Made by a program: the position numbers and the translations under genes
Assembly (NCBI GenBank): GCA_038064595.1
Contig: JBBTSV010000003.1
Coordinates: 41,150-105,149, forward strand
DNA length: 64,000 nucleotides
DNA from: Patescibacteria group bacterium
GTDB lineage: Bacteria > Patescibacteriota > Minisyncoccia > Phycocordibacterales > Phycocordibacteraceae
Reading direction: 5' to 3'
The notes under the pieces: model-generated
The model's input: only the letters and a program-made list of their open reading frames with translations
Told to the model about the DNA's origin: nothing
The model's database searches: none
Shown: in pieces, positions 13,244-33,889 of the stretch
How the letters are laid out: every line of letters starts with the position of its first letter
How positions within the stretch are numbered: the stretch's first letter is position 1

Positions 13244-13274
13244 GAAGTAGGGGAGCGCCCCCATTGAATGTATA

Positions 13275-13751
13275 TCAGAATCCGAGCCAGCTTGCTACCA
13301 GGTCGGTGAAGGAGTGCGTGTGCGCGCTCTCATCGACGTGGTGGAGAAAGTAGGCATATATCGCGTCTACGTCGACCCCGACGAGCGGGATGATTAAATG
13401 TGGTGAGAGCCAATTCTCTGTTTTAATCGAGAGCATGGGGGGGTATTCGTCCTCGATATCCTCAAGGACCGAAAAAGAAATCATCCGATCAAAGGGATGA
13501 AGCTCGTCGCCGATCATAAGACCTTGCTCAACAAGCTGGAAACGATGGATCGGTGGCTCCTTTGCCGCGTGGAGCGCGAGCGCCCCTGCGGCGACGATGA
13601 TTAAGAACGCAAGAAGAAGATTACCAAATAGGATCGCGGCAATAGTCGCCGCAGTTGCGACAATCCCTACGACCCAATACCAATCGGCATCCTTAGGATT
13701 ATGGTCGTACTCTCGCCCTTCCCACTCGAGGAGTGCTGCGCGTTCTGCCAT
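13275..13751 (-). CDS. hypothetical membrane protein
   Basis: Two predicted TM helices. Start set at Met MAERAALLEW. Confidence 0.35.
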   Translation of the reverse strand: MAERAALLEWEGREYDHNPKDADWYWVVGIVATAATIAAILFGNLLLAFLIIVAAGALALHAAKEPPIHRFQLVEQGLMIGDELHPFDRMISFSVLEDIEDEYPPMLSIKTENWLSPHLIIPLVGVDVDAIYAYFLHHVDESAHTHSFTDLVASWLGF

Positions 13752-13821
13752 AGTCCTATGATAGCAGACGCCGCGTTGGCACCTCGCCCGTATGCACAAT
13801 GGAGATCAGTTAGCTTCAGTG

Positions 13822-13906
13822 CGGAGAGGGTGAGATTCGAACTCACGGTACCTTTCAGTACGCTTGTTTTCAAGACAAGTGCCATAGACCACTCGGCCAC
13901 CTCTCC
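13822..13906 (-). tRNA. tRNA-Ser (anticodon TGA)
   Basis: Reverse complement GGAGAGGTGGCCGAGTGG..., a long variable arm and anticodon loop CTTGAAA. Confidence 0.8.
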
Positions 13907-13943
13907 TTGGCGCACTCGTGCTTTATAGCATACACTTTATTCT

Positions 13944-14360
13944 ATGCGCTATCTCGGTATCGATTATGGGAGTTCGAAGGTCGGTCTCGCGCTCTCTGAC
14001 GAGGGCGGCATGATGGGGTTCCCGCACTCTATCCTCACCAACACCCCGAGTCTTCTTGAGGAGCTCTGTGCGCTCATTGTGAGGGAGCAGGTGGGCGCGG
14101 TGGTTATGGGGGAGTCGCGCACACTTGCCGGTGGGGAGAACCCGATTATGCAGGCGGCGCGCGAGCTCGGTGACGCGCTCACGGTGCGCGCAGGCGTGCC
14201 GGTCTACTATGAGTCAGAGGTCTTCACGAGTGCCGAGGCGCGCCGCGCGCCAGCCAAAGAGAAGAAGACCCGCGCGCCCTTGGCGCGCGGGGCAGTGGAC
14301 GCCTCGGCTGCCGCACTCATCCTTACCAGCTATCTCTCCCGCACCCATGGACCCCATTAA
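13944..14360 (+). CDS. ruvX: Holliday junction resolvase-like protein YqgF/RuvX
   Basis: MRYLGIDYGSSKVGLALSD N-terminus. Confidence 0.8.
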   Translation: MRYLGIDYGSSKVGLALSDEGGMMGFPHSILTNTPSLLEELCALIVREQVGAVVMGESRTLAGGENPIMQAARELGDALTVRAGVPVYYESEVFTSAEARRAPAKEKKTRAPLARGAVDASAAALILTSYLSRTHGPH

Positions 14361-21084: not shown

Positions 21085-22713
21085 ATGGACATTCTCACCA
21101 CCCTCATCTACAGCCCTTCGCTCGACAGCATTATGCTGGTGGTGGCAGCGGTGGCCGACATCTTTCTTGCGGGCGCGGTACTCATGAGTAATCCGCGCAG
21201 CGCGACAAACCGCATCTTTTCGCTCCTTACCCTCTTCACAATGCTGTGGCTAGTCACCACCTATATCGTACGCCTTCCAGACTTTCTCCTCGTCTCGCTT
21301 GAACTGCACCGGTTTGGTATTTTTTGTGCCGCGGCGATGAGCGGACTCTTCTTCCTCTTGGCGCACACGATGCCTGCCTCTACGATCCAGCTCAAGCGCT
21401 CAACGTACGTGGTGGTGATTGGGTCAATCCTCCTCATGATGGGCGTCAATCTCTCGCCATATGCATTTACTGGAATCTTGATTGCGAATGGCACCAGTTC
21501 GCCGCTTCCAGGACCGGGCCTGGTAGTGTTTAGCATTCTCTCGACGCTCTACAGCGCGCTCACGGTCTATTGGTTGTTGCGCAAGTACAAACACTCAACT
21601 GGAGATGTGCGGCGCCAGTTCGGACTCGTGCTCTCGGGTATTGTGATCATGCTGGCACTTATTATTGGGACGATTCTCATCCCAATCATCATCTTCAATT
21701 CAATACAGTTCCTTACTTTCACGCCACTCTACACCCTGGTGTTTCTCGGGATGACTGCCTACGCGATAACGAAGTATCAACTTTTCAATATCAAAGTTTT
21801 GCTCACTCAAGCGTTGACGCTGGTGCTCTGTCTCATCCTCTTTGCGCGCATCTTTGGAGAAGAGAGTGTCAACGGACAGGTTATTGATGGAGTCGTACTG
21901 GTGTGTATGGCAGTTTTCGGCTATTTCTTGGTACAGAGCGTAAAAAAGGAAGTGCAGCAACGCGAGCGGATCCAGCTTCTGGCGAGCGAGCTCGAGAAAT
22001 CAAATGAACAACTTTCTGAGTTTATGTCGCTCGCGACCCACGAGATCCGCAATCCGGCCACCTTTATTAAGGGCTATGCCGCAGGGGCGCTCGAGGGCGA
22101 TCTCGGCGAGCTCACTCCTATTATTAAAGATGGAATGCAGAAGTTGTATGTGCGCGCAAACGACATCATTCACCTCGGCAATCAGTATCTCGATAAGTCA
22201 AAGCTTGAGCTCAACCAGCTTAAATACGAGTTCGCCCCACTCGATGTGCGCAAACTCATTGAAGATTTGGTGCATGAGTTTGAGCCCGCGGCTATTCAGC
22301 AGGGGATTACACTCTCTGCTAAAACAGACTCGGCGGGAACGTATACTATCGAAGCCGATGCCGGGAAGATTAAAGAGGTGGTCGCCAATCTGATCGATAA
22401 TTCAATCAAATATACTCCCAAGGGGTCGGTGACGGTGACACTCTCCCAGAAGAGCTCGGTCGTGAGGGTGGAGATCGCCGATACGGGTGTCGGCATCTCC
22501 GACGACGTGATCCCCAAACTCTTCAAGAAGTTCTCTCGCGCAGATGCACAGAAGGCAAATATTCTCGGCACCGGACTTGGCCTGTATATCGCTAAAGTCT
22601 TCATCGATGCGCACCACGGGAGCGTGCGCGTCGAGTCGACAGGCAAAGACAAGGGTTCGACTTTCATAGTTGAGTTGCCGATCACGCAACCGACTGGCGT
22701 GCCTGTTCGCTAG
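21085..22713 (+). CDS. membrane sensor histidine kinase
   Basis: Six or more TM helices, an H-box SLATHEIRNP and the HATPase_c motifs DTGVGI and GTGLGLYIAK. Confidence 0.85.
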   Translation: MDILTTLIYSPSLDSIMLVVAAVADIFLAGAVLMSNPRSATNRIFSLLTLFTMLWLVTTYIVRLPDFLLVSLELHRFGIFCAAAMSGLFFLLAHTMPASTIQLKRSTYVVVIGSILLMMGVNLSPYAFTGILIANGTSSPLPGPGLVVFSILSTLYSALTVYWLLRKYKHSTGDVRRQFGLVLSGIVIMLALIIGTILIPIIIFNSIQFLTFTPLYTLVFLGMTAYAITKYQLFNIKVLLTQALTLVLCLILFARIFGEESVNGQVIDGVVLVCMAVFGYFLVQSVKKEVQQRERIQLLASELEKSNEQLSEFMSLATHEIRNPATFIKGYAAGALEGDLGELTPIIKDGMQKLYVRANDIIHLGNQYLDKSKLELNQLKYEFAPLDVRKLIEDLVHEFEPAAIQQGITLSAKTDSAGTYTIEADAGKIKEVVANLIDNSIKYTPKGSVTVTLSQKSSVVRVEIADTGVGISDDVIPKLFKKFSRADAQKANILGTGLGLYIAKVFIDAHHGSVRVESTGKDKGSTFIVELPITQPTGVPVR

Positions 22714-24820: not shown

Positions 24821-24916
24821 TTTTCATACCGACAAAATCCGAGCCCACGTATGCTCGGATTTTGTTTTTCCACAATTGGTATACGCTACTACCTTGAGCT
24901 AGAGTATACTGGGTGC

Positions 24917-25606
24917 ATGGGGAAGAGTGGTCCAAAGCCGAAAGGGAAAGTGAAAATTACGTGGTCTGCGAACTTTGCCTATGCCCTTGGATTGATCGCC
25001 TCCGATGGCTGTCTTGCTGGAGGACGACATATCGTTCTGGTATCGAAAGACACCGAGCAGCTTGAAAACTTTATGAAGGCTCTCGCGATTACCGTCCCTA
25101 TAGGAAAGACAGCATCCGGTTACAATGGGAATATCGCATCTAAAGTCCAGTTCAGTGATGTCCTGTTCTATAATTTTCTGGAAACAATTGGTCTGATGCC
25201 TCGTAAGTCAAAAATTATTGGAGAGATACAAATTCCAGCTAAGTACTTCTTTGATTTCTTACGCGGCTCTTTTGATGGTGATGGATGCACCTACTCCTAC
25301 TGGGATCCGCGCTGGAAGTCGAGCTTTATGTTCTACACTACCTTCGTCTCCGCGAGCTACAAACACATCGAGTGGCTCCGCGACGAGATTCATGCGCAGT
25401 TAGGTATTCGTGGACACCTGACGGGGGATGGAAAAAGAGTTATCTTTCAGCTCAAATACGCCAAGGCAGACTCACTGAAACTATTGCGTAAAATGTATTA
25501 CTCAAAAAAGGTGCTCTGCCTTTCTCGCAAACGATTGAAAATTGAGAAGATGTTAGGTATAGTGGGTGAGTTGCTAGTGAAAAAGAGCAAGAAATTGACA
25601 AGATAA
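24917..25606 (+). CDS. LAGLIDADG-family homing endonuclease (double motif)
   Basis: LGLIASDGCL and LRGSFDGDGCT motifs. AT-rich. ATG at 24917 after a TATACT box. The stop codon ends 2 nt before tRNA-Leu(GAG). Confidence 0.65.
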   Translation: MGKSGPKPKGKVKITWSANFAYALGLIASDGCLAGGRHIVLVSKDTEQLENFMKALAITVPIGKTASGYNGNIASKVQFSDVLFYNFLETIGLMPRKSKIIGEIQIPAKYFFDFLRGSFDGDGCTYSYWDPRWKSSFMFYTTFVSASYKHIEWLRDEIHAQLGIRGHLTGDGKRVIFQLKYAKADSLKLLRKMYYSKKVLCLSRKRLKIEKMLGIVGELLVKKSKKLTR

Positions 25607-25820: not shown

Positions 25821-26351
25821 ATGCTCTACACCCGCAAAGGAGATACCGGGACGACGACCGCATTTGGCTGTAATCAGCAGCGGATCTCTAAGTCGTCAGA
25901 ACTTCCCGAGGCGCTCGGCTCTCTCGACGAGCTCAATGCGTTCATTGGCTTCGTGAAGATGAAGAGCAGCGAGCCGCGGATCGCCACCACGCTGCGCGAT
26001 GTGCAAGAAAAACTTTTCATCATCCAGGCCGAGACGGCGGGAGCGCAGAAGAAGACAGAGGAGGGGAGTGTGCTCGCTCTCGAGGAGCTGGTGAATGCGA
26101 TTGAGAAAGAGATTCCGCCACTGAAGGGCTTCTCGATAGCGGGCGGGACCGAGCTCTCAGCGATGCTCGACGTGGCGCGAACGCTCGCGCGCCGCGCTGA
26201 GCGCCGCCTCACGGCGGTGAACGAGCTCAAGATCCGCGAGCTCTCTCCGGAGACGCTTGCGTATATGAACCGCCTCTCCTCGCTCCTCTTCGCGCTCGCG
26301 CGGCTCGCCAACCACCTCGCGGGCGTCCCCGAGGAGAACCCGAAATATTAA
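25821..26351 (+). CDS. PduO-type ATP:cob(I)alamin adenosyltransferase
   Basis: MLYTRKGDTGTT N-terminal signature. Confidence 0.8.
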   Translation: MLYTRKGDTGTTTAFGCNQQRISKSSELPEALGSLDELNAFIGFVKMKSSEPRIATTLRDVQEKLFIIQAETAGAQKKTEEGSVLALEELVNAIEKEIPPLKGFSIAGGTELSAMLDVARTLARRAERRLTAVNELKIRELSPETLAYMNRLSSLLFALARLANHLAGVPEENPKY

Positions 26352-26396: not shown

Positions 26397-28487
26397 TTGC
26401 TCATGAATCGCTCCGAGAGCTATGCCGCCGTTAAGCCCTCTAAACCTAACGATCTTGAGGCTAAACCAGGTATCGTTGACGACCAGGAACAGATTCTTGC
26501 AGGATTTTCTCCCGAAGAGCGAAAGATCATCCGCGAAAGAATGCGTCTCCTCTCGCTCATTCCAAATCACATTGGTAAAGACTTCGAGATGGCAGTCGAG
26601 CTGAATACATCGGGCGAAGGATGGCACTGGAACTTCGCTATCAACCACGTCCGTGTTGACCCGAAAGATCTGCTCGAAAAACCCCTCGACTGGTGCCGCC
26701 AAACAATGGTGCATGAGGGTGGTCATCGACGCGTGTCACGTGTTGATTTCATTCCGAAAGATATTTGGGAACAGCCGGGTTTTTCTTCGATGATGAACGC
26801 GATCGAGGATCCACGCATGGAGAACTTCATTTCTGAAGCGTATCCTCCATATCGCAAGCTCCAGAAGACAGCGTACGAGCACGATCTTGAGTCAGAAAAA
26901 CGCATGAAAGAATCCGCCGATGGAAAGCTTGGGCGACAGCCACGCTTCATGCAAGCTGGATTTGAATATATCAAGCAATGGTTCAAGCAGACCCAAGGTA
27001 AGCCATTCGAGCTCTCCGCAGATTTGCCCGACGACGTACGAGTGGTCGTTAATAAAACTCTCAAGGCAGCCGAGGATTCGTGGCTCCGTTATCCGACCAG
27101 AAACGAGGCTGACAAAAGCGAGGAGGTCATTAAAGCGTATGCGGAAAAATCATACGAAATCAATCGTGATCGAGTGTGGCCAGACTTTAAGAAGCTTGTC
27201 GAACAAGATATTAAGGATCAAGAAATTCCGGAGTTCCTTAAAGACCTTATGCAAGGAAAGGGCGAAGGAAAACCAGAGGCAGGACAAGGAGAAGGACAGA
27301 GTGAAGGCCTTTCGCCACAGGACATCCAAGATATTAAAGATGCAGTTAAAGCGGCACTTGGCGAAAAGGGTGAAGGCAAGCCCATACCTCCTGGCGCGTT
27401 GTCGGAAGAACTTAAACAGAAAATCCAAGCCGCGTTTGACGCGCTCCCCGAGGATAAAAAGCGCGAGATTATGGAAGCGGCACGCGCTGAAATAAAGGAA
27501 TTGGCAGACGAGTTCGCCGCTCAATTTGAGGGTGAATATATTAAAGCCGGAGAACCACAGGGCGAACCAGAATCGGGGACGCTCGAATCCGAAGGTCGTG
27601 CATGGAGCGAGGCGGAGCGAGCGGCTGATGACACGCGACACGAGATGCGGCGGCGCATGGAAGAGTCACTTGGGCGTAGCGAAGGCGATCCATATCGAGA
27701 GGCACTTACAGAAATGGCCTCATACATCGATGCTCTCACTGGTGATCTGCGTGATGTGTTGGTGAAGCGCAAAATGACCACGACGGAGGCAGGGTATCGT
27801 TCAGGAAGGCGCTGGAATATTCGTACCCGCATTAAAGAGCGTATTGCGGATATCCCGCTTATCAAAACCCAGAGTCGAGAACAGCCAGAATCATCTAGCG
27901 AAGAAACCGACTACGCGGTCCTACTTCAAATCGATCTCTCCGGTTCGATGAGCCGTGGTAACAAAATCGAAGAGGCGTTTAAAGCGATTGTGCTATTGAG
28001 CGAAACATTGAACAATCTCAATATCCACTTCGAGATTGATGGCTTCCAAGACCTCCTTCTCGAATTCAAACGTTTCGAGGAACAGCTCGATGAATCGATG
28101 CGGCTTAAACTGAATCAATTGTTGCTTGAAGTTGAAAATGAAAATCCAGATGGACACAATAACGCGGGTGATAACGACGATGGTGCCTGCCTACGAGAAG
28201 CATCACAGCATCTGGCTAACCAAACAGCACGGGAGAAGATTTTGATCGTCCTCTCCGATGGCCAACCCGCCATGGATTCAGGGCGCAAGAGTCAGGGACA
28301 GCTCGATCGAGAACTCAAGGCGGTTATCCGTGAGATTCGTGAGAATACTGACCAAAAACTCATCGGCATAGGCATCAATTCGAGTGCTGTTTCTAGCTAT
28401 TACGAAAACAATCTCCCGAATGTCGATGCGAAAGAGCTTGCCGAAACCCTCGGTGAGTTACTGCGTAGCGTGATTGAACGCAACTGA
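26397..28487 (+). CDS. VWA-domain protein with N-terminal putative zinc-metallopeptidase motif (MoxR partner-type)
   Basis: HExxH (MVHEGGH) near the N-terminus, a long acidic low-complexity middle region, and a C-terminal VWA MIDAS (DLSGSM ... LSDGQP). Confidence 0.7.
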   Translation: MLMNRSESYAAVKPSKPNDLEAKPGIVDDQEQILAGFSPEERKIIRERMRLLSLIPNHIGKDFEMAVELNTSGEGWHWNFAINHVRVDPKDLLEKPLDWCRQTMVHEGGHRRVSRVDFIPKDIWEQPGFSSMMNAIEDPRMENFISEAYPPYRKLQKTAYEHDLESEKRMKESADGKLGRQPRFMQAGFEYIKQWFKQTQGKPFELSADLPDDVRVVVNKTLKAAEDSWLRYPTRNEADKSEEVIKAYAEKSYEINRDRVWPDFKKLVEQDIKDQEIPEFLKDLMQGKGEGKPEAGQGEGQSEGLSPQDIQDIKDAVKAALGEKGEGKPIPPGALSEELKQKIQAAFDALPEDKKREIMEAARAEIKELADEFAAQFEGEYIKAGEPQGEPESGTLESEGRAWSEAERAADDTRHEMRRRMEESLGRSEGDPYREALTEMASYIDALTGDLRDVLVKRKMTTTEAGYRSGRRWNIRTRIKERIADIPLIKTQSREQPESSSEETDYAVLLQIDLSGSMSRGNKIEEAFKAIVLLSETLNNLNIHFEIDGFQDLLLEFKRFEEQLDESMRLKLNQLLLEVENENPDGHNNAGDNDDGACLREASQHLANQTAREKILIVLSDGQPAMDSGRKSQGQLDRELKAVIREIRENTDQKLIGIGINSSAVSSYYENNLPNVDAKELAETLGELLRSVIERN

Positions 28488-28509: not shown

Positions 28510-29502
28510 ATGCCCGAAGGCCCTCCCAAAACGGCACCCAAGATACTCGAACAACAGCTCATAGACTTGAGAGAGATTCAGCGCGCACTCGCCGAGGCGA
28601 GAGAGGCCGGGGATGTGGCGGCCGCAGAGGCACTTATGGAGCAGCATCGAGATGCAGTCGAGCCGATGGAAGCCTCAACATCTCCAGGAGAGTCGCCAGA
28701 AGGTGCCACATTAGCAGATGCCGAACGCATCCTCGGCAAAGAATCGATACTTGGTCCCAAAGCTGTGGAGCAGGTGTTCGGAGTCAAACTAGACCGCATA
28801 CCAGCCATCCCGTTTTCACAGCAGGAATTGCAACGCGCCAAAGAGCTCGGTCAACAACTCATTTTCTACACCGACGCTCTTTCACCCACTACGCTAGGAG
28901 AAAAAGTCAAACCACTTACTCTCGCGAATTTGAAACAGAAATTCACAAAAGCCCACGACGACGGCAAAGTTTTCTACGAACAAGATTGGTACAAGAATGA
29001 AGATTTCTTCAAAAAAGAGAAACCGCGCGTTGGTTGGCGACTCACCTCAAAAGATCTACTCCCAGAGTCAACCTCGAAAAACTATCTCGAACAGACCGAT
29101 GTGCTGATCGAGTATTTACAAAAACAAGTCTTCAAGGGAGCAAAACTTCCGAAACCATATGAAGACGCGATCGCAGAGTGGAAGCGTGAACGAGAAAAGA
29201 TCGAGCCACTGGCGACAAGCTCGACAGACACCGAATGGAAATGTGGTTCCCAAATGCTTACCGATCTTGCGATCACTAAGCTCACACGAGAATTACCAAT
29301 CGAAGTCATGTATCGATTTATCCTTAACGATCAGATAAACAAAGATAAACCCCTCCCCTCAGCCTACACATGGACAGCGAGTCGTTCGTCTGGCGGCTAC
29401 CTCGTGCATGTCGGCGGCTTCGGCGACGCGGGTGCGCTTGTGAGCAGGGGCGACCCCGGCGCTCGCCACGACAATCTCGGCGTCTCGTTCTCCCGCAGTT
29501 GA
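28510..29502 (+). CDS. DGR target protein 1 (variable repeat at its C-terminus; paralogous to the C-terminal 265 aa of target 2)
   Basis: The last 41 codons form VR1. Its C-terminal motif ...NLGVSFSRS resembles a CLec-fold DGR variable region. Confidence 0.75.
   Translation: MPEGPPKTAPKILEQQLIDLREIQRALAEAREAGDVAAAEALMEQHRDAVEPMEASTSPGESPEGATLADAERILGKESILGPKAVEQVFGVKLDRIPAIPFSQQELQRAKELGQQLIFYTDALSPTTLGEKVKPLTLANLKQKFTKAHDDGKVFYEQDWYKNEDFFKKEKPRVGWRLTSKDLLPESTSKNYLEQTDVLIEYLQKQVFKGAKLPKPYEDAIAEWKREREKIEPLATSSTDTEWKCGSQMLTDLAITKLTRELPIEVMYRFILNDQINKDKPLPSAYTWTASRSSGGYLVHVGGFGDAGALVSRGDPGARHDNLGVSFSRS
29378..29499 (+). repeat. DGR variable repeat VR1
   Basis: 122-nt alignment to the template repeat gives 19 mismatches, all at template adenines, and 0 of 91 non-A positions differ. 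Confidence 0.9.
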
Positions 29503-29536
29503 TTTTTGAATAGTGAAGAATGAATCTTTGAATCCT

Positions 29537-29559
29537 CTCCGACCCGTTTAGGGTCGGAG
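29537..29559 (+). other. GC-rich hairpin downstream of VR1 (DGR homing-associated stem-loop / terminator)
   Basis: CTCCGACCC-GTTTA-GGGTCGGAG lies 35 nt after VR1. An analogous hairpin follows VR2. Confidence 0.5.
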
Positions 29560-29593
29560 ACTCTCGAAAAATTATTCTGATATACTTCACCAT

Positions 29594-30001
29594 ATGACAC
29601 AAACCTCAGTTGCCCCATCTGCCCTCATAAGCCAATCTATAGGCCTTCCGAATTTGGTCATTGTTGAAAGCTCTAAAACTCTTGAGGGGGCCGAGGCACG
29701 CGTCCGACAAGATCTAGCGGGCTTTATGAAAGCGTCTGACGCCACCTCGGTGCTTGACCACTTAGAGAAAGGCATAAGCGTCCTCTATATAGAACGAGGT
29801 GAGAAGCTCGATCCTCGCGTAGAAACAATTGTGACCACCTATGCGGCTGGTATGGCGAGCTTCGCTTCACCCAGCGGTCTTGTATCTGCCAGCTTCGATC
29901 CGATGCACACAGCCCTCACCATCGTTATTTCCCGTGACGCTCTTGAAAAGAGCTACCCACAGCTTCTCACTTACGCCGGTGCTGTCACTTCTATTTCATA
30001 A
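29594..30001 (+). CDS. hypothetical protein
   Basis: ORF between the two DGR targets with no recognisable motifs. Confidence 0.35.
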   Translation: MTQTSVAPSALISQSIGLPNLVIVESSKTLEGAEARVRQDLAGFMKASDATSVLDHLEKGISVLYIERGEKLDPRVETIVTTYAAGMASFASPSGLVSASFDPMHTALTIVISRDALEKSYPQLLTYAGAVTSIS

Positions 30002-30006
30002 ATCAT

Positions 30007-32073
30007 ATGTCTGAACGCCGACCAACTGCAAAGAGAGAGAAACCAGGACGCGAACCGTTCATCGTAGAGAAGGACGAGTCGGTGTCGTACCTTGGAGTCG
30101 AAGTGCCTAAAGGCGAAGGCGGTCCACTCGTCCCAGGTCGTCAGGAATCAGAAAATTATTTTTATACGGAAGAGGATTACCTGTTGCGCCGAGAGATGGC
30201 GACGTCAATCGCGCTCAATAAACCAATTCTCTTTGAAGGCGGCACCGGCATAGGCAAAACTTCAGCCGTTGCCGCGATGTGTGCCGAGCTCAACCTCAAT
30301 TTCTGCAAGGTGTCCTTCGCGCGCGATATGGCGATTGAGGACGTAATCGGCGGTAAGACTATTGTTAAAGAGGGTGACGCAGAAGTCGTGAAATGGTACG
30401 ACGGCAACTTGATGGTCGCGATTCGCCACGGCGGTATCGCCCTTCTCGACGAATACAACTTTCAAGGCAGCAAAGTCGGCTCGCGTGTGAACCCAGTCAT
30501 TGATGCAATTTTGAACGGGAGAAAAGAAATATCGCTGCCCGAAAATGACAACGAGCGTGTGATGGTGCATCCCAACTTCCGCCTTGTCGCTGCGCAGAAT
30601 CCTCCAGGCACCGAAGAGGGCCAAGAATTTACCGGACGTGAACAGATGTCCGCCGAGACATTCGGACGATGGACGTTTAATAAACTTCCCCTTGAAATGA
30701 GTCGAGACATGCGCGACAAACGTCTCGCAGGCATGATGGGAGAATCTGTTGATATCAAATTGCCTCCTGAAGCCTTCCGCAAGCTCGGCGAGGGCGTTCC
30801 GTTCCACGAACTCAAAGACATTCCTGGAATGACGCATTGGCGTCGTGCTGCCCTCGATGTGCTTGACCAGCTCAAAGCCAAGTCTACCGGTGCAGATCGC
30901 GATATGGCCAAGACACAGCGCCAGCGCCTCTACTTCAACCCGCGCCTTGAGCAAGGACTTCTGAACTACGTCTCTCGCTTCTATCGGGGAGACGTAAACC
31001 AGGTATGGGGCGAAGCATTCGAGCACCTTATCGTCGGCATGTACAAAGATGAGGCTGATCGCCAGGCGGTGCGTGAATTGCTCACGCTAAACGCCTACGA
31101 GCCACAGACCGACACGAAACGCAGGCCACTCGGCGATGCTGAGCGAGCTGAACAAGAAGGGGCAGAAGAAACATGGGCAAAAGTTGCTGAATTTGAAGAC
31201 AAACTTGCTACTAAGATTTCTGCCCTCGAACAGGAGCTTGGCGTTTCATCTGGTGAGAGTAAAGAAATATCGCTTGCCGACGCAGAAAAGATTCTTGGAA
31301 AGGAGTCCGTGCTCGGAGCGAAAGATGTGGAACAAGTGTTCGGAGTCAAACTAGATCGCATACCAGCCATCCCATTTTCACAGCAGGAATTGCAACGCGC
31401 TAAAGAACTCGGTCAGCAACTCATTCTCCAAGTTGATTCAATGACTCACAAGGGGGGACTGATGTCTCGTGAGAAGAGTGCTCCGCTCACGCTTGAGAAT
31501 CTGAAACAGAAATTCACAAAGTCCCACGACGATGGCAAAGTTTTCTACGAACAAGATTGGTACAAGAATGAAGATTTCTTCAAAAAAGAGAAGCCGCGCA
31601 CCGGCTGGAGGCTCACATCAAAAGACCTCGTTCCTGACTCCACGAGTAAGAGCTATCTCGAGCAAACTGATGTACTCGTCGAGCATTTGGAGAAACAGAT
31701 TTTCAAAGGTGTCGAGGTACCAAAACAATATAAGGATGCCATTGCCGAATTCAAGCGCAAGAGAGCAGAGATTGAACCGCTCGCAAAAAGTGGAACAGAT
31801 GCGGAATGGAAAAAAGGTTCCCAGATGCTCGCTGATCTCGCGATTACCAAACTTGCCCGCGAACTGCCGGTCGAGGCCATGTACCGCCTCATTTTGAACG
31901 ACCAAACTCGAAAGGATAAACCGCTCCCCTTAACCTACACATGGACAGCGTGTCGTGCGTCTGGCGGCAGCCTCGTGGATGTCGGCTGCTTCGGCGACGC
32001 GGGTGCGGCTGTGGACGGGGGCAGCCCCGACGTTCGCTACGACCGTCTCGGCGTCTCGTTCTCCCGCAGTTGA
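30007..32073 (+). CDS. MoxR-like AAA+ ATPase fused to a DGR-diversified C-terminal domain (DGR target 2)
   Basis: Walker A EGGTGIGKTS and Walker B ALLDEYN of the AAA_5/MoxR type. The C-terminal ~265 aa are paralogous to target 1 and end in VR2. Confidence 0.8.
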   Translation: MSERRPTAKREKPGREPFIVEKDESVSYLGVEVPKGEGGPLVPGRQESENYFYTEEDYLLRREMATSIALNKPILFEGGTGIGKTSAVAAMCAELNLNFCKVSFARDMAIEDVIGGKTIVKEGDAEVVKWYDGNLMVAIRHGGIALLDEYNFQGSKVGSRVNPVIDAILNGRKEISLPENDNERVMVHPNFRLVAAQNPPGTEEGQEFTGREQMSAETFGRWTFNKLPLEMSRDMRDKRLAGMMGESVDIKLPPEAFRKLGEGVPFHELKDIPGMTHWRRAALDVLDQLKAKSTGADRDMAKTQRQRLYFNPRLEQGLLNYVSRFYRGDVNQVWGEAFEHLIVGMYKDEADRQAVRELLTLNAYEPQTDTKRRPLGDAERAEQEGAEETWAKVAEFEDKLATKISALEQELGVSSGESKEISLADAEKILGKESVLGAKDVEQVFGVKLDRIPAIPFSQQELQRAKELGQQLILQVDSMTHKGGLMSREKSAPLTLENLKQKFTKSHDDGKVFYEQDWYKNEDFFKKEKPRTGWRLTSKDLVPDSTSKSYLEQTDVLVEHLEKQIFKGVEVPKQYKDAIAEFKRKRAEIEPLAKSGTDAEWKKGSQMLADLAITKLARELPVEAMYRLILNDQTRKDKPLPLTYTWTACRASGGSLVDVGCFGDAGAAVDGGSPDVRYDRLGVSFSRS
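31949..32070 (+). repeat. DGR variable repeat VR2
   Basis: 22 mismatches to the template repeat, all at template adenines. VR2 also differs from VR1. Confidence 0.9.
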
Positions 32074-32108
32074 TTTTTGAATACCGAATAATGAAGTCTT
32101 GAGTCCAT

Positions 32109-32129
32109 GCTGACCCGTTCAGGGTCAGC
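32109..32129 (+). other. hairpin downstream of VR2
   Basis: GCTGACCC-GTTC-AGGGTCAGC, followed by a T-run. Confidence 0.5.
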
Positions 32130-32333
32130 ATCCGCGCAAATTTTTTGCTAGTATGGACATACGGCTAATGAAGCGTCATTTACGGATGTCGCTCGCCGAA
32201 AAACACTGCTTGTCCGCCATTAGCGCAAACGGTTGAAGTAATGGGACAGTGCGCACATCCTATAACCCGAAACAGCTCACGCCTTTCGCGCATGCGAAAC
32301 GCTGGGGCGAAGCCACGGACGATGGCGGACAAA

Positions 32334-32455
32334 ACGAGTCGTACGTCTGACGGCAACCTCGTGAATGTCGGCAACTTCGACGACACGGGTGCGAATGTGA
32401 ACAGGAACAACCCCGACAATCGCAACGACAATCTCGGCGTCTCGTTCTCCCGAAG
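32334..32455 (+). repeat. DGR template repeat (TR)
   Basis: 31 adenines, AAC/AAT-rich (7 AAC). It is the invariant copy relative to VR1 and VR2 and sits in a degenerate remnant of the target C-terminus, upstream of the RT. Confidence 0.9.
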
Positions 32456-32459
32456 TGTT

Positions 32460-32487
32460 TCCAACACCACTCAGATGAGTGGTGTTG
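32460..32487 (+). other. 13-bp-stem hairpin immediately after TR
   Basis: CCAACACCACTCA-GAT-GAGTGGTGTTGG followed by ATTTTT. It may be a DGR spacer RNA structure or a terminator. Confidence 0.4.
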
Positions 32488-32851
32488 GATTTTTCGTATA
32501 CTTGATCCATCCGCCGACCATGCTACCGATCTCGATTATTTTCTCAGAGAGCGAGGCGAATCCGGCATCGTTGATGCTCCCCGTTTTATACGCAAGGCGC
32601 AGATGGGTCGTGAGCATCTTGAGTGTTACGTCCGCTTTATTAAGTATCAAAAGCCGAGACGCTCCCTGCTTGCTTTGTGCAAGGTAGAGAAGCTCGATGA
32701 TTTCGAGTATGGTATTTTCTATTCTCACACCGAGCGTGTACCGTTCCGGTTTTTTGAATTTCAAGACTCGCTTGTGCGCAGCAAGGTACAATTGGCTCAC
32801 TTTATGGAAAACGATCGGCTCGGTGTACGTCTCGACAGTGGATTGGGTCAT
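32471..32851 (-). CDS. avd: Avd-like accessory variability determinant (four-helix-bundle protein)
   Basis: 126 aa. The C-terminus IIEIGSMVGGWIKYTKN and the helix pattern match Bordetella bAvd (IAEVGRILGSWIARVNRK). It is encoded antisense between TR and RT. Confidence 0.65.
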   Translation of the reverse strand: MTQSTVETYTEPIVFHKVSQLYLAAHKRVLKFKKPERYTLGVRIENTILEIIELLYLAQSKQGASRLLILNKADVTLKMLTTHLRLAYKTGSINDAGFASLSEKIIEIGSMVGGWIKYTKNPTPLI

Positions 32852-33889
32852 AAGGATTTATTTAAGCTCATAATCTCCAAGGAGAACATTTTCGCCGCGT
32901 GGCGGGAGTTCCAGAAGTGGAAGATGAGCAAACAGGACGTGCTCGCATTTTCAGAACATTTTGAAGAGCATCTCTTGCAATTGCACTACGACCTTGCAAA
33001 TGGGCGATACCGACATGGACCCTATATACGCTTCCTCATTCAGGATCCGAAACAGCGTAGTATCGCCAAAGCAAGCGTCCGCGATCGCGTCCTGCATCAC
33101 GCCATCTGTCGCGTGATCACGCCGAGCTTTGATAATGCATTTGTATTTGATACGTACTCGAGCCGCAAGACCAAGGGCGTCCATCGAGCGATCGAACGGC
33201 TCGTACGTTTGGCGTGGCGACTATCCCGAAACAACACACAGACCGTCTGGATGCTTAAGTGCGATATACGAAAGTTTTTCGAGAGTGTTGGCCATGACAG
33301 ATTGCTTGAGTTATGTACGAGACGCATTGATGACAGTCGTGTTATGGCCCTACTCAAGAATATTCTCGGTAGTTTTGAAGCGGAACCTAGAACTAGAAAG
33401 AGTATCCCTCTCGGCAACCTCACTTCACAGCTCTTTGCTAACATCTATCTCGACCGATTTGATCAGTATGTGAAGCGCGAATTGCGTTTCAAGAATTATC
33501 TCCGCTATACCGACGACTTCATACTGCTCTCCACTGATCGCGAAGAACTTGAACGCACCTTACCGCTCATACGGGATTTTCTCTTACGTGACCTCAATCT
33601 CGATTTGCACCCAACAAAAGTCACATTTCGGAAGTGGCATCAAGGCGTCGACTTTCTTGGCTATGTGCATTTTCCGCATCACCGAGTTATCCGTACGAAG
33701 ACAAAGAAACGTATGATTCGAAAACTGCGCAATCGAAAAGAAACTTTTGAAGCTAGAGACATCGACGAAGATGAGTTGCGCCAAACGGTAGCATCGTATC
33801 TCGGTGTTCTCTCGCACTCTCAAAACAGAGGATTGGCGAGACGCATTCGTCGTGATTTTCTCCCTAAGGGTAAGGCTCTTACCGAGTAA
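32804..33889 (+). CDS. DGR reverse transcriptase
   Basis: Bordetella Brt-like motifs: KENIFAAWREF, GPYIRFLIQDPKQRSI, the DGR-specific LGNLTSQLFANIY and YTDDFILL. Start set at the ATG at 32804; the upstream part of the ORF is unsupported. Confidence 0.9.
   Translation: MENDRLGVRLDSGLGHKDLFKLIISKENIFAAWREFQKWKMSKQDVLAFSEHFEEHLLQLHYDLANGRYRHGPYIRFLIQDPKQRSIAKASVRDRVLHHAICRVITPSFDNAFVFDTYSSRKTKGVHRAIERLVRLAWRLSRNNTQTVWMLKCDIRKFFESVGHDRLLELCTRRIDDSRVMALLKNILGSFEAEPRTRKSIPLGNLTSQLFANIYLDRFDQYVKRELRFKNYLRYTDDFILLSTDREELERTLPLIRDFLLRDLNLDLHPTKVTFRKWHQGVDFLGYVHFPHHRVIRTKTKKRMIRKLRNRKETFEARDIDEDELRQTVASYLGVLSHSQNRGLARRIRRDFLPKGKALTE

Follow-up and report, generated by a model that had tools for sequence, protein, structure and literature searches.

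In 2017 Paul et al. reported the fusion of an AAA ATPase to a C-type lectin (CLec) domain as a variable protein of diversity-generating retroelements (DGRs) in Candidate Phyla Radiation (CPR) bacteria (Nat Microbiol 2:17045, as cited by Doré et al., 2024, PMC10907252), and Doré et al. suggested that signals which the C-terminus senses are transduced by the ATPase. One year later Wu et al. (2018, PMC5758913) described midasin-type AAA motifs in the CPR targets named UVR4, leaving the fold of the variable-region domain open, and found the B3 layout, with an inverted avd gene, in 90% of the CPR DGRs. In 2020 Kaur, Burroughs, Iyer and Aravind (PMC7159879) described DGR-coupled ternary systems of MoxR and vWA proteins where the vWA protein carries the lectin as a fusion; CPR genomes were left out of their multicellularity statistics, information on the lifestyle of CPR bacteria being lacking, and CPR systems do not appear in their text. 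Experiments in Actinobacteria, made public in a 2026 preprint, support that MoxR-vWA pairs relay signals from variable sensors. Here we describe a DGR cassette in 64,000 nucleotides of DNA from a Patescibacteria (CPR) bacterium (contig JBBTSV010000003.1, positions 41,150 to 105,149; this whole stretch is called the window and is numbered from its first letter), in which the variable lectin is carried by a MoxR-class ATPase and a predicted zincin-like domain by its VWA partner. It is a widely conserved CPR AAA-CLec DGR system with a wiring distinct from that of the published MoxR-vWA-DGR systems.

A first-pass annotation of the window had taken this architecture to be, as far as it was aware, uncharacterised. 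That view has to be corrected, the ATPase-CLec fusion having already been reported for CPR (Paul et al., 2017, via Doré et al., 2024; Wu et al., 2018); an experimental characterisation was not found in the literature searched. The zincin-VWA and small-protein partners, the relatives without a DGR and the fold assignments given below appear to be additions to what is described, as they were not found in that literature; it did not include the text of Paul et al. (2017), so that priority is uncertain. The genes of the cassette are:

26397 to 28487, + strand: zincin-VWA partner protein, 696 residues, TTG start (Pfam CobT_C/VWA in the C-terminal 190 residues)
28510 to 29502, + strand: DGR target 1, a CLec-only protein of 330 residues (about 74% identity to the C-terminal module of the ATPase protein; no Pfam match)
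29594 to 30001, + strand: conserved small protein, 135 residues, the third component of the cassette (position-matched homologues)
30007 to 32073, + strand: DGR target 2, 688 residues, composed of an AAA_5 (MoxR-class) ATPase, a lid/helical region, a coiled linker and a CLec-fold module (open reading frame, Pfam, homologues)
32471 to 32851, - strand: accessory protein bAvd, 126 residues, inverted relative to the reverse transcriptase (Pfam bAvd, E 2.5e-14)
32603 to 33889 (open reading frame), + strand: DGR reverse transcriptase (RT) (Pfam RVT_1, E 1.5e-22)

The 688-residue ATPase-CLec protein is deposited at NCBI in exactly this form as "MAG: MoxR family ATPase [Patescibacteria group bacterium]", and 78 homologue clusters were found. 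A survey of bacterial and archaeal contigs, one genome per species, gave 77 loci, of which 71 are clear members of the family; these are spread over many CPR classes, a few being labelled archaeal or otherwise. Gene content was scored by an open reading frame, BLAST and hidden Markov model (HMM) survey. Upstream genes were counted in the 63 loci with at least 3 kb of upstream sequence: the zincin-VWA gene was found upstream of the ATPase gene in 62 of them, as was, also in 62, the small gene between the two. Downstream genes were counted in the 48 loci with a complete ATPase open reading frame and at least 2.5 kb of downstream sequence. There an RT, an Avd or a template repeat (TR) followed the ATPase gene in 39 loci, and in 32 there was a TR with adenine bias that matches the ATPase gene at its 3' end. 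This conserved order shows that the ATPase is inherited as a unit with the zincin-VWA protein and the small protein.

The small protein is known by position and by sequence. Open reading frames of about 125 to 150 residues at the matching position in related loci align as one family, in which a QYPTGQ motif is often present. It had no match in Pfam, NCBIfam, PDB or PADLOC, and a search of the PDB sequences with its profile returned noise (E above 0.5).

The DGR is complete and consists of a TR, an inverted bAvd, an RT and two targets. Its repeats and hairpins are:

29378 to 29499, + strand: variable region VR1, at the end of target 1 (19 of 19 mismatches to TR at TR adenines)
31949 to 32070, + strand: variable region VR2, which covers the final 40 codons of the ATPase-CLec gene (22 of 22 mismatches at TR adenines)
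32335 to 32456, + strand: TR, 122 nucleotides with 31 adenines and 10 AAY codons (repeat comparison)
29536 to 29560, + strand: hairpin with a 10-bp stem about 37 nucleotides 3' of VR1 (DNA fold -11.9 kcal/mol, z -3.8)
32107 to 32131, + strand: hairpin with a 10-bp stem about 37 nucleotides 3' of VR2 (DNA fold -12.1 kcal/mol, z -5.5)
32460 to 32489, strand not assigned: 13-bp hairpin with a T-run, situated between TR and the 3' terminus of avd (DNA fold -14.2 kcal/mol, z -7.2)

With 31 adenines in 122 nucleotides, the chance that all mismatches fall on adenines is about 5e-12 for VR1 and about 8e-14 for VR2. The mismatch pattern shows that RT, bAvd and TR can be expected to rewrite about 20 adenine-templated positions within the last 40 codons of the ATPase-CLec protein and of its CLec-only paralogue. 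When the last 41 residues are set aside, close homologues of the ATPase-CLec protein have identities of 96%, 93% and 88%; inside these residues the identities are only 66%, 59% and 59%, the variable region being about 5 to 10 times more divergent than the remainder. Such a concentration of the divergence between close homologues in the variable region is what diversification by a DGR predicts. No further copies of the variable region and no second cassette were found within the window.

The two hairpins following VR1 and VR2 have the core GACCC-GTTY-AGGGTC in common, and their outer stems vary by compensatory changes; they resemble the hairpin that has been described downstream of DGR target sites. 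The 13-bp hairpin probably either serves as terminator or forms the 3' end of the TR RNA. The translation of the RT contains LGNLTSQ and YTDD, the former of the type [ILV]GxxxSQ that is typical of DGR RTs, and TR lies about 150 to 350 nucleotides upstream of the RT. The longest open reading frame of the RT overlaps the inverted avd by about 250 nucleotides, and conserved RT sequence begins near residue 86. Because the upstream part of the frame overlaps avd, the RT probably starts at M68 (ATG at 32804).

Within the ATPase-CLec protein the following parts were delimited:

30226 to 30621, + strand: AAA_5 ATPase core, residues 74 to 205 (Pfam AAA_5, E 1e-11)
30238 to 30261, + strand: Walker A, GGTGIGKT, residues 78 to 85 (sequence)
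30445 to 30453, + strand: LDE of the Walker B motif LLDEYN, with D148 and E149 (sequence)
31249 to 32070, + strand: C-terminal CLec/FGE-fold module, residues 415 to 688 (structure model)

The N-terminal part is an AAA_5/MoxR-type ATPase, as the first-pass annotation had proposed from the motifs GTGIGKTS and LLDEYN; both are in place, and in an alignment of 39 ATPase homologues the Walker A lysine K84, D148, E149, N198 and R221 are invariant. An FYxGD motif within the lid/helical region is likewise invariant. The AAA_5 score is 45 bits (cut-off 22), and the score for AAA_3, the family of MoxR proper, is 27.0 bits (cut-off 27). In a search of the PDB sequences with the ATPase core several midasin AAA domains matched with a summed E of 5e-46, and CbbQ, CobS and NorQ came next with about 1e-9 to 1e-10. 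Midasin, CbbQ, CobS and NorQ are motors of the AAA_5/MoxR class, each of which works with a partner carrying a VWA domain and its metal ion-dependent adhesion site (MIDAS). The matches of the protein to the NCBIfam models of CobS and GvpN were weak and far under the thresholds. An identity of the pair with CobS and CobT was considered and rejected on scores of 34 bits against 558 (TIGR01650) and 49 bits against 759 (TIGR01651).

The hypervariable C-terminus had been predicted to have a CLec-like fold, and the structure model agrees: the top structural match of the module is TvpA, itself a DGR variable protein, and in the model the variable region sits at the C-terminus within the CLec/FGE fold. 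The identity in sequence to the solved DGR variable proteins is about 12%, and the module carries a long helical insert. Sequence profiles did not recognise it. The Pfam scan of the C-terminal 289 residues gave no credible family, the sole listing being ANP with E 0.19; FGE-sulfatase and DUF1566, both of which would be among the families scanned, did not match; and for the module and target 1 no family was assigned from Pfam, NCBIfam or PADLOC. Homologous ATPase cores bear different CLec variants by subfamily, with endings such as GVSFSRS, GFRVAVVL, GCRLSR and GARSSAIFEIL.

Many related loci also have a short CLec-only target, mostly 3' of the ATPase gene. In the window its gene is found between those of the VWA protein and the small protein, and in close relatives (loci L001, L004 and L081) it is placed downstream of that of the ATPase-CLec protein. 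Some members of the family are 940 to 1160 residues long (L006, 7908-10718; L066, 7893-10748; L059, 7854-11336). Two of these, L006 and L066, have a second, internal repeat resembling the variable region inside the same open reading frame, pointing to a tandem of two CLec modules on a single ATPase.

In the partner protein a low-complexity/coiled linker joins an N-terminal zincin-like domain (about residues 37 to 275) to a CobT-type VWA domain (about residues 505 to 696). The NCBI model of the protein has 694 residues, which would correspond to a start at M3 (nucleotide 26403). Its motifs are:

26712 to 26726, + strand: HEGGH (HExxH), H106 to H110, putative zinc-binding and catalytic motif (conservation)
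27933 to 27947, + strand: MIDAS motif DxSxS (D513, S515, S517) of the VWA domain (invariant in 36 sequences)

In the alignment of 36 zincin-VWA sequences H106, E107, H110, R111, R112, E137 and D138 are invariant (HEGGHRR), as is D621, the distal SDG aspartate of the VWA domain. E137, which lies downstream of HEGGH within NAIEDPR, is a candidate for the third zinc ligand. The structure predicted for the N-terminal 290 residues (pLDDT 84) places, at the level of the fold, an HExxH helix and a candidate third ligand on a zincin fold. In a Foldseek comparison of this model with the PDB the minigluzincins ranked first, not significantly. The first-pass annotation had correctly noted a VWA-MIDAS protein with an N-terminal HExxH motif and had placed it immediately upstream of the ATPase gene; in fact target 1 and the gene of the 135-residue protein intervene. 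It had also put DUF2201_N among the families to be searched for; neither DUF2201_N (PF13203) nor PF09967 matched any of the 36 members in Pfam at E up to 1, and no Pfam zincin family matched these members or 10 divergent relatives. Searching 1.84 billion representatives with a profile of the zincin domain gave about 450 clusters. Among the matches listed, those of full length had about 650 to 890 residues with the domain N-terminal, and all 10 divergent relatives scanned had kept the C-terminal VWA domain. Judged by these searches, the zincin-like domain is uncatalogued and found essentially only N-terminal to VWA in this architecture.

Two loci contain distant relatives of the zincin-VWA protein beside AAA_5 ATPases and a gene for about 150 residues, without a CLec domain and without a DGR (L085, 4766-10151; L087, 122-4915). 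HExxH and MIDAS are kept in both. L085 encodes a tandem-AAA_5 protein of 736 residues and has neighbours that are not CPR-like; L087 has the CPR gene order. The HMM of the small protein did not match the syntenic small proteins of L085 and L087, for which homology is unproven. Because these loci resemble the three-gene module without CLec and DGR, the lectin and the DGR look like an addition to an older module of zincin-VWA protein, AAA_5 ATPase and small protein.

In none of the four cassette proteins was a signal peptide or a transmembrane or hydrophobic segment found, the maximum hydropathy over 19 residues being 1.5. The proteins are predicted to be cytoplasmic.

The best explanation of these findings, which we consider probable if not by a wide measure, is a cytoplasmic MoxR-class ATPase with a lectin tip rewritten by the DGR, which would form with the zincin-VWA protein and the small protein an ATP-driven machine that possibly serves the sensing or degradation of invader proteins. 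We infer from related motors that the ATPase-CLec subunits form a ring, presumably a hexamer. This ring would display several variable lectin tips, in analogy to CbbQ-CbbO, NorQ-NorD, CobS-CobT and midasin, and the VWA protein would dock on it. ATP hydrolysis would remodel the ligand captured by the tips, and the metallopeptidase domain of the partner would either cleave the captured ligand or be switched on by its capture. To the older three-protein module the DGR would give a specificity that can be reprogrammed. The most likely role, and the least certain step of the proposal, would be the intracellular recognition of fast-evolving foreign proteins, i.e., the sensing or neutralization of phages or other invaders. 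A more specific and bolder version, in which the VWA-tethered zincin cleaves phage proteins captured by the lectin tips of the ATPase ring, an "antibody-guided AAA+ protease" widespread in CPR, is put forward here as a speculation that we consider rather unlikely to hold as a whole.

Several points weigh against the proposed machine. The first-pass annotation had suggested a MoxR-VWA machine whose tip is programmable, and the conserved gene order strongly backs this idea; gene order is at the same time the sole basis for the co-operation of the three proteins. The defence role is drawn from analogy alone, no PADLOC defence model matches the components other than the RT, and known effector or toxin domains are absent. 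About 9 of the 48 loci have no DGR nearby, so that either diversification would not be obligatory or the RT would act in trans. Finally, one subfamily of the ATPase-CLec proteins (P0018, P0022, P0024, P0025, P0027, P0029, P0033, P0036 and P0038 of the ATPase alignment) has a degenerate Walker A motif, GGTGVYNKT, with an insertion of one residue and N in place of the G before the lysine, the DE of Walker B being kept. In this subfamily nucleotide binding may be altered or lost, and ATP hydrolysis may not be universal across the family.

The alternative that survives best, although we regard it as unlikely, is a signalling sensor without proteolysis, in which the CLec tip binds an antigen or signal, the ATPase and the VWA protein relay it or set a threshold, and the zincin-like domain has a structural or autoprocessing role or no activity. 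A relay has been proposed for MoxR-linked DGR targets (Doré et al., 2024), MoxR-vWA proteins of the Esr pathway relay from variable sensors (2026 preprint), and in systems of this kind many of the peptidase domains have no catalytic activity (Kaur et al., 2020). Yet HExxH and E137 are invariant in the 36 homologues and HExxH is kept even in the distant relatives, which argues for a working active site, and the cassette contains no conserved kinase, cyclase, transcription factor or other output component.

Attachment to the host is the general proposal for the DGRs of CPR and DPANN, and a surface or host-contact function had also been considered for the window in the first place. The CLec tip would then be an adhesin with which an episymbiotic CPR bacterium binds the surface of its host cell, as Mtd and TvpA bind theirs, and the fold of the module is indeed closest to that of TvpA. 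For the cassette proteins this is improbable, because export signals are absent (the four proteins also lack a lipobox) and the ATPase needs the ATP of the cytoplasm. Moreover, the lectin is fused to an ATP-dependent motor that is paired with a MIDAS/VWA partner of the kind known from cytoplasmic machines, and no conserved secretion genes were found nearby.

Still less probable is that the cassette belongs to a CPR mobile element or phage, for example as a takeover or anti-defence module. In favour are a 95%-identical copy in an IMG/VR contig, with other flanks and another position of the short target, and the DNA methylase genes that flank the cassette in L081 and L001. The 95%-identical L081 has flanks entirely different from those of the window. 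Between close relatives the cassette is, as their gene orders indicate, rearranged and probably relocated. On the other hand, the viral collection (IMG/VR, 2.9 million viral contigs) contained 4 matches to the family, as compared to 71 in the bacterial and archaeal contigs with one genome per species; among 50,697 phage records the sole match was a weak one to the CobT VWA; and on the close viral-labelled contig the flanks encode a DNA methylase besides unknown proteins and show no hallmark genes of phages. The genes that neighbour the cassette in the window have housekeeping functions (UppS, a pseudouridine synthase, L19 and SHMT), and phage structural genes were not seen. The DGR cassette is chromosomal in this Patescibacteria bacterium.

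A chaperone for metal chelation or cofactor insertion of the CobS-CobT or NorQ-NorD type, without any part in conflict and with the DGR tuning the choice of substrate, is hardly credible: the best named matches are CobS and CobT, the matching structures are CobS, NorQ and CbbQ, and a gene for a PduO-type adenosyltransferase lies directly upstream, yet this gene accompanies the cassette in the closest relatives only, such a chaperone would leave no role for an N-terminal zincin, a CLec tip or the mutagenesis of adenines, and no conserved client of the CobN, NOR or Rubisco type was linked to the cassette in the loci surveyed.

The adenosyltransferase gene (Cob_adeno_trans, E 1.6e-44) is found at 25821-26351, 46 nucleotides upstream of the VWA gene. 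The family also occurs about 4 kb from the cassette in L001 and L074. Because it is absent from the other loci, the neighbourhood is probably coincidental and the enzyme functionally unrelated. Just upstream of the cassette region there is a weakly LAGLIDADG_3-like open reading frame (24851-25606, E 2e-4), and a faint LAGLIDADG_3 frame adjoins the cassette of L003 (Staskawiczbacteria, 13252-13989). One of the genes farther upstream, in the midst of the housekeeping genes, encodes a histidine kinase whose N-terminal region is of the 7TM type (21085-22713; HisKA_7TM, HATPase_c); within the annotated stretch no response regulator was found.

Hardly any other group equals the CPR bacteria in the number of DGRs per genome. 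The results turn what was vaguely an "AAA-CLec target", the protein that these bacteria most commonly diversify, into a defined candidate complex of three proteins that is open to reconstitution, and they shift its likely role from host attachment toward recognition within the cell.

Among the known systems, the CPR AAA-CLec/UVR4 targets are those to which the window protein belongs: it stems from Patescibacteria, has an N-terminal AAA domain of the midasin type and a C-terminal variable region, and its avd is inverted (B3). What differs from the description of UVR4 by Wu et al. (2018) is that the variable-region domain is here modelled as CLec/FGE-like with TvpA as top match.

With TvpA of Treponema denticola, Mtd of the Bordetella phage BPP-1 and TaqVP the module shares the CLec/FGE fold as modelled, the C-terminal variable region, the AAY-rich template and the mutagenesis of adenines. 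TvpA is a surface lipoprotein of Treponema and Mtd a tail-fibre protein of the phage. Here, by contrast, the fold is fused to an ATPase, has the long helical insert and the low identity already mentioned, and is predicted to be cytoplasmic.

The MoxR partners with DUF2201_N (PF13203) and a VWA-like domain (PF09967) follow the same concept, an HExxH domain N-terminal to VWA beside a MoxR-class ATPase, and differ in sequence, for which there was no match. CobS-CobT, NorQ-NorD, CbbQ-CbbO and midasin are similar in the sequence of the ATPase core and in having a CobT-type VWA domain with MIDAS in the partner. In the CPR cassette a zincin N-domain, a lectin tip and a retroelement have been added, and none of the clients of these chaperones (CobN, NOR or Rubisco) is linked to it.

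The systems with VMAP or iSTAND (Kaur et al., 2020; Doré et al., 2024) are analogous in that a MoxR-class ATPase and a vWA protein are encoded in one operon with a DGR-diversified FGS/CLec domain, that the components are predicted to be cytoplasmic, and that a variable sensor is coupled to an NTPase chaperone pair. They are wired differently. There the CLec domain is on the vWA protein; here it is on the ATPase, and the vWA protein has the zincin-like domain instead. Their third component is VMAP or iSTAND; here it is a far shorter and probably unrelated protein of about 135 residues. The ATPase and the VWA protein of the cassette are nearer to CobS and CobT than to MoxR proper. They are equipped with trypsin, caspase, TIR and similar effectors and occur in multicellular cyanobacteria and proteobacteria; the hosts here are ultrasmall CPR bacteria. 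The comparison links the CPR systems to the MoxR-vWA conflict systems of multicellular bacteria in another wiring, with the sensor on the motor and the putative protease on the adaptor.

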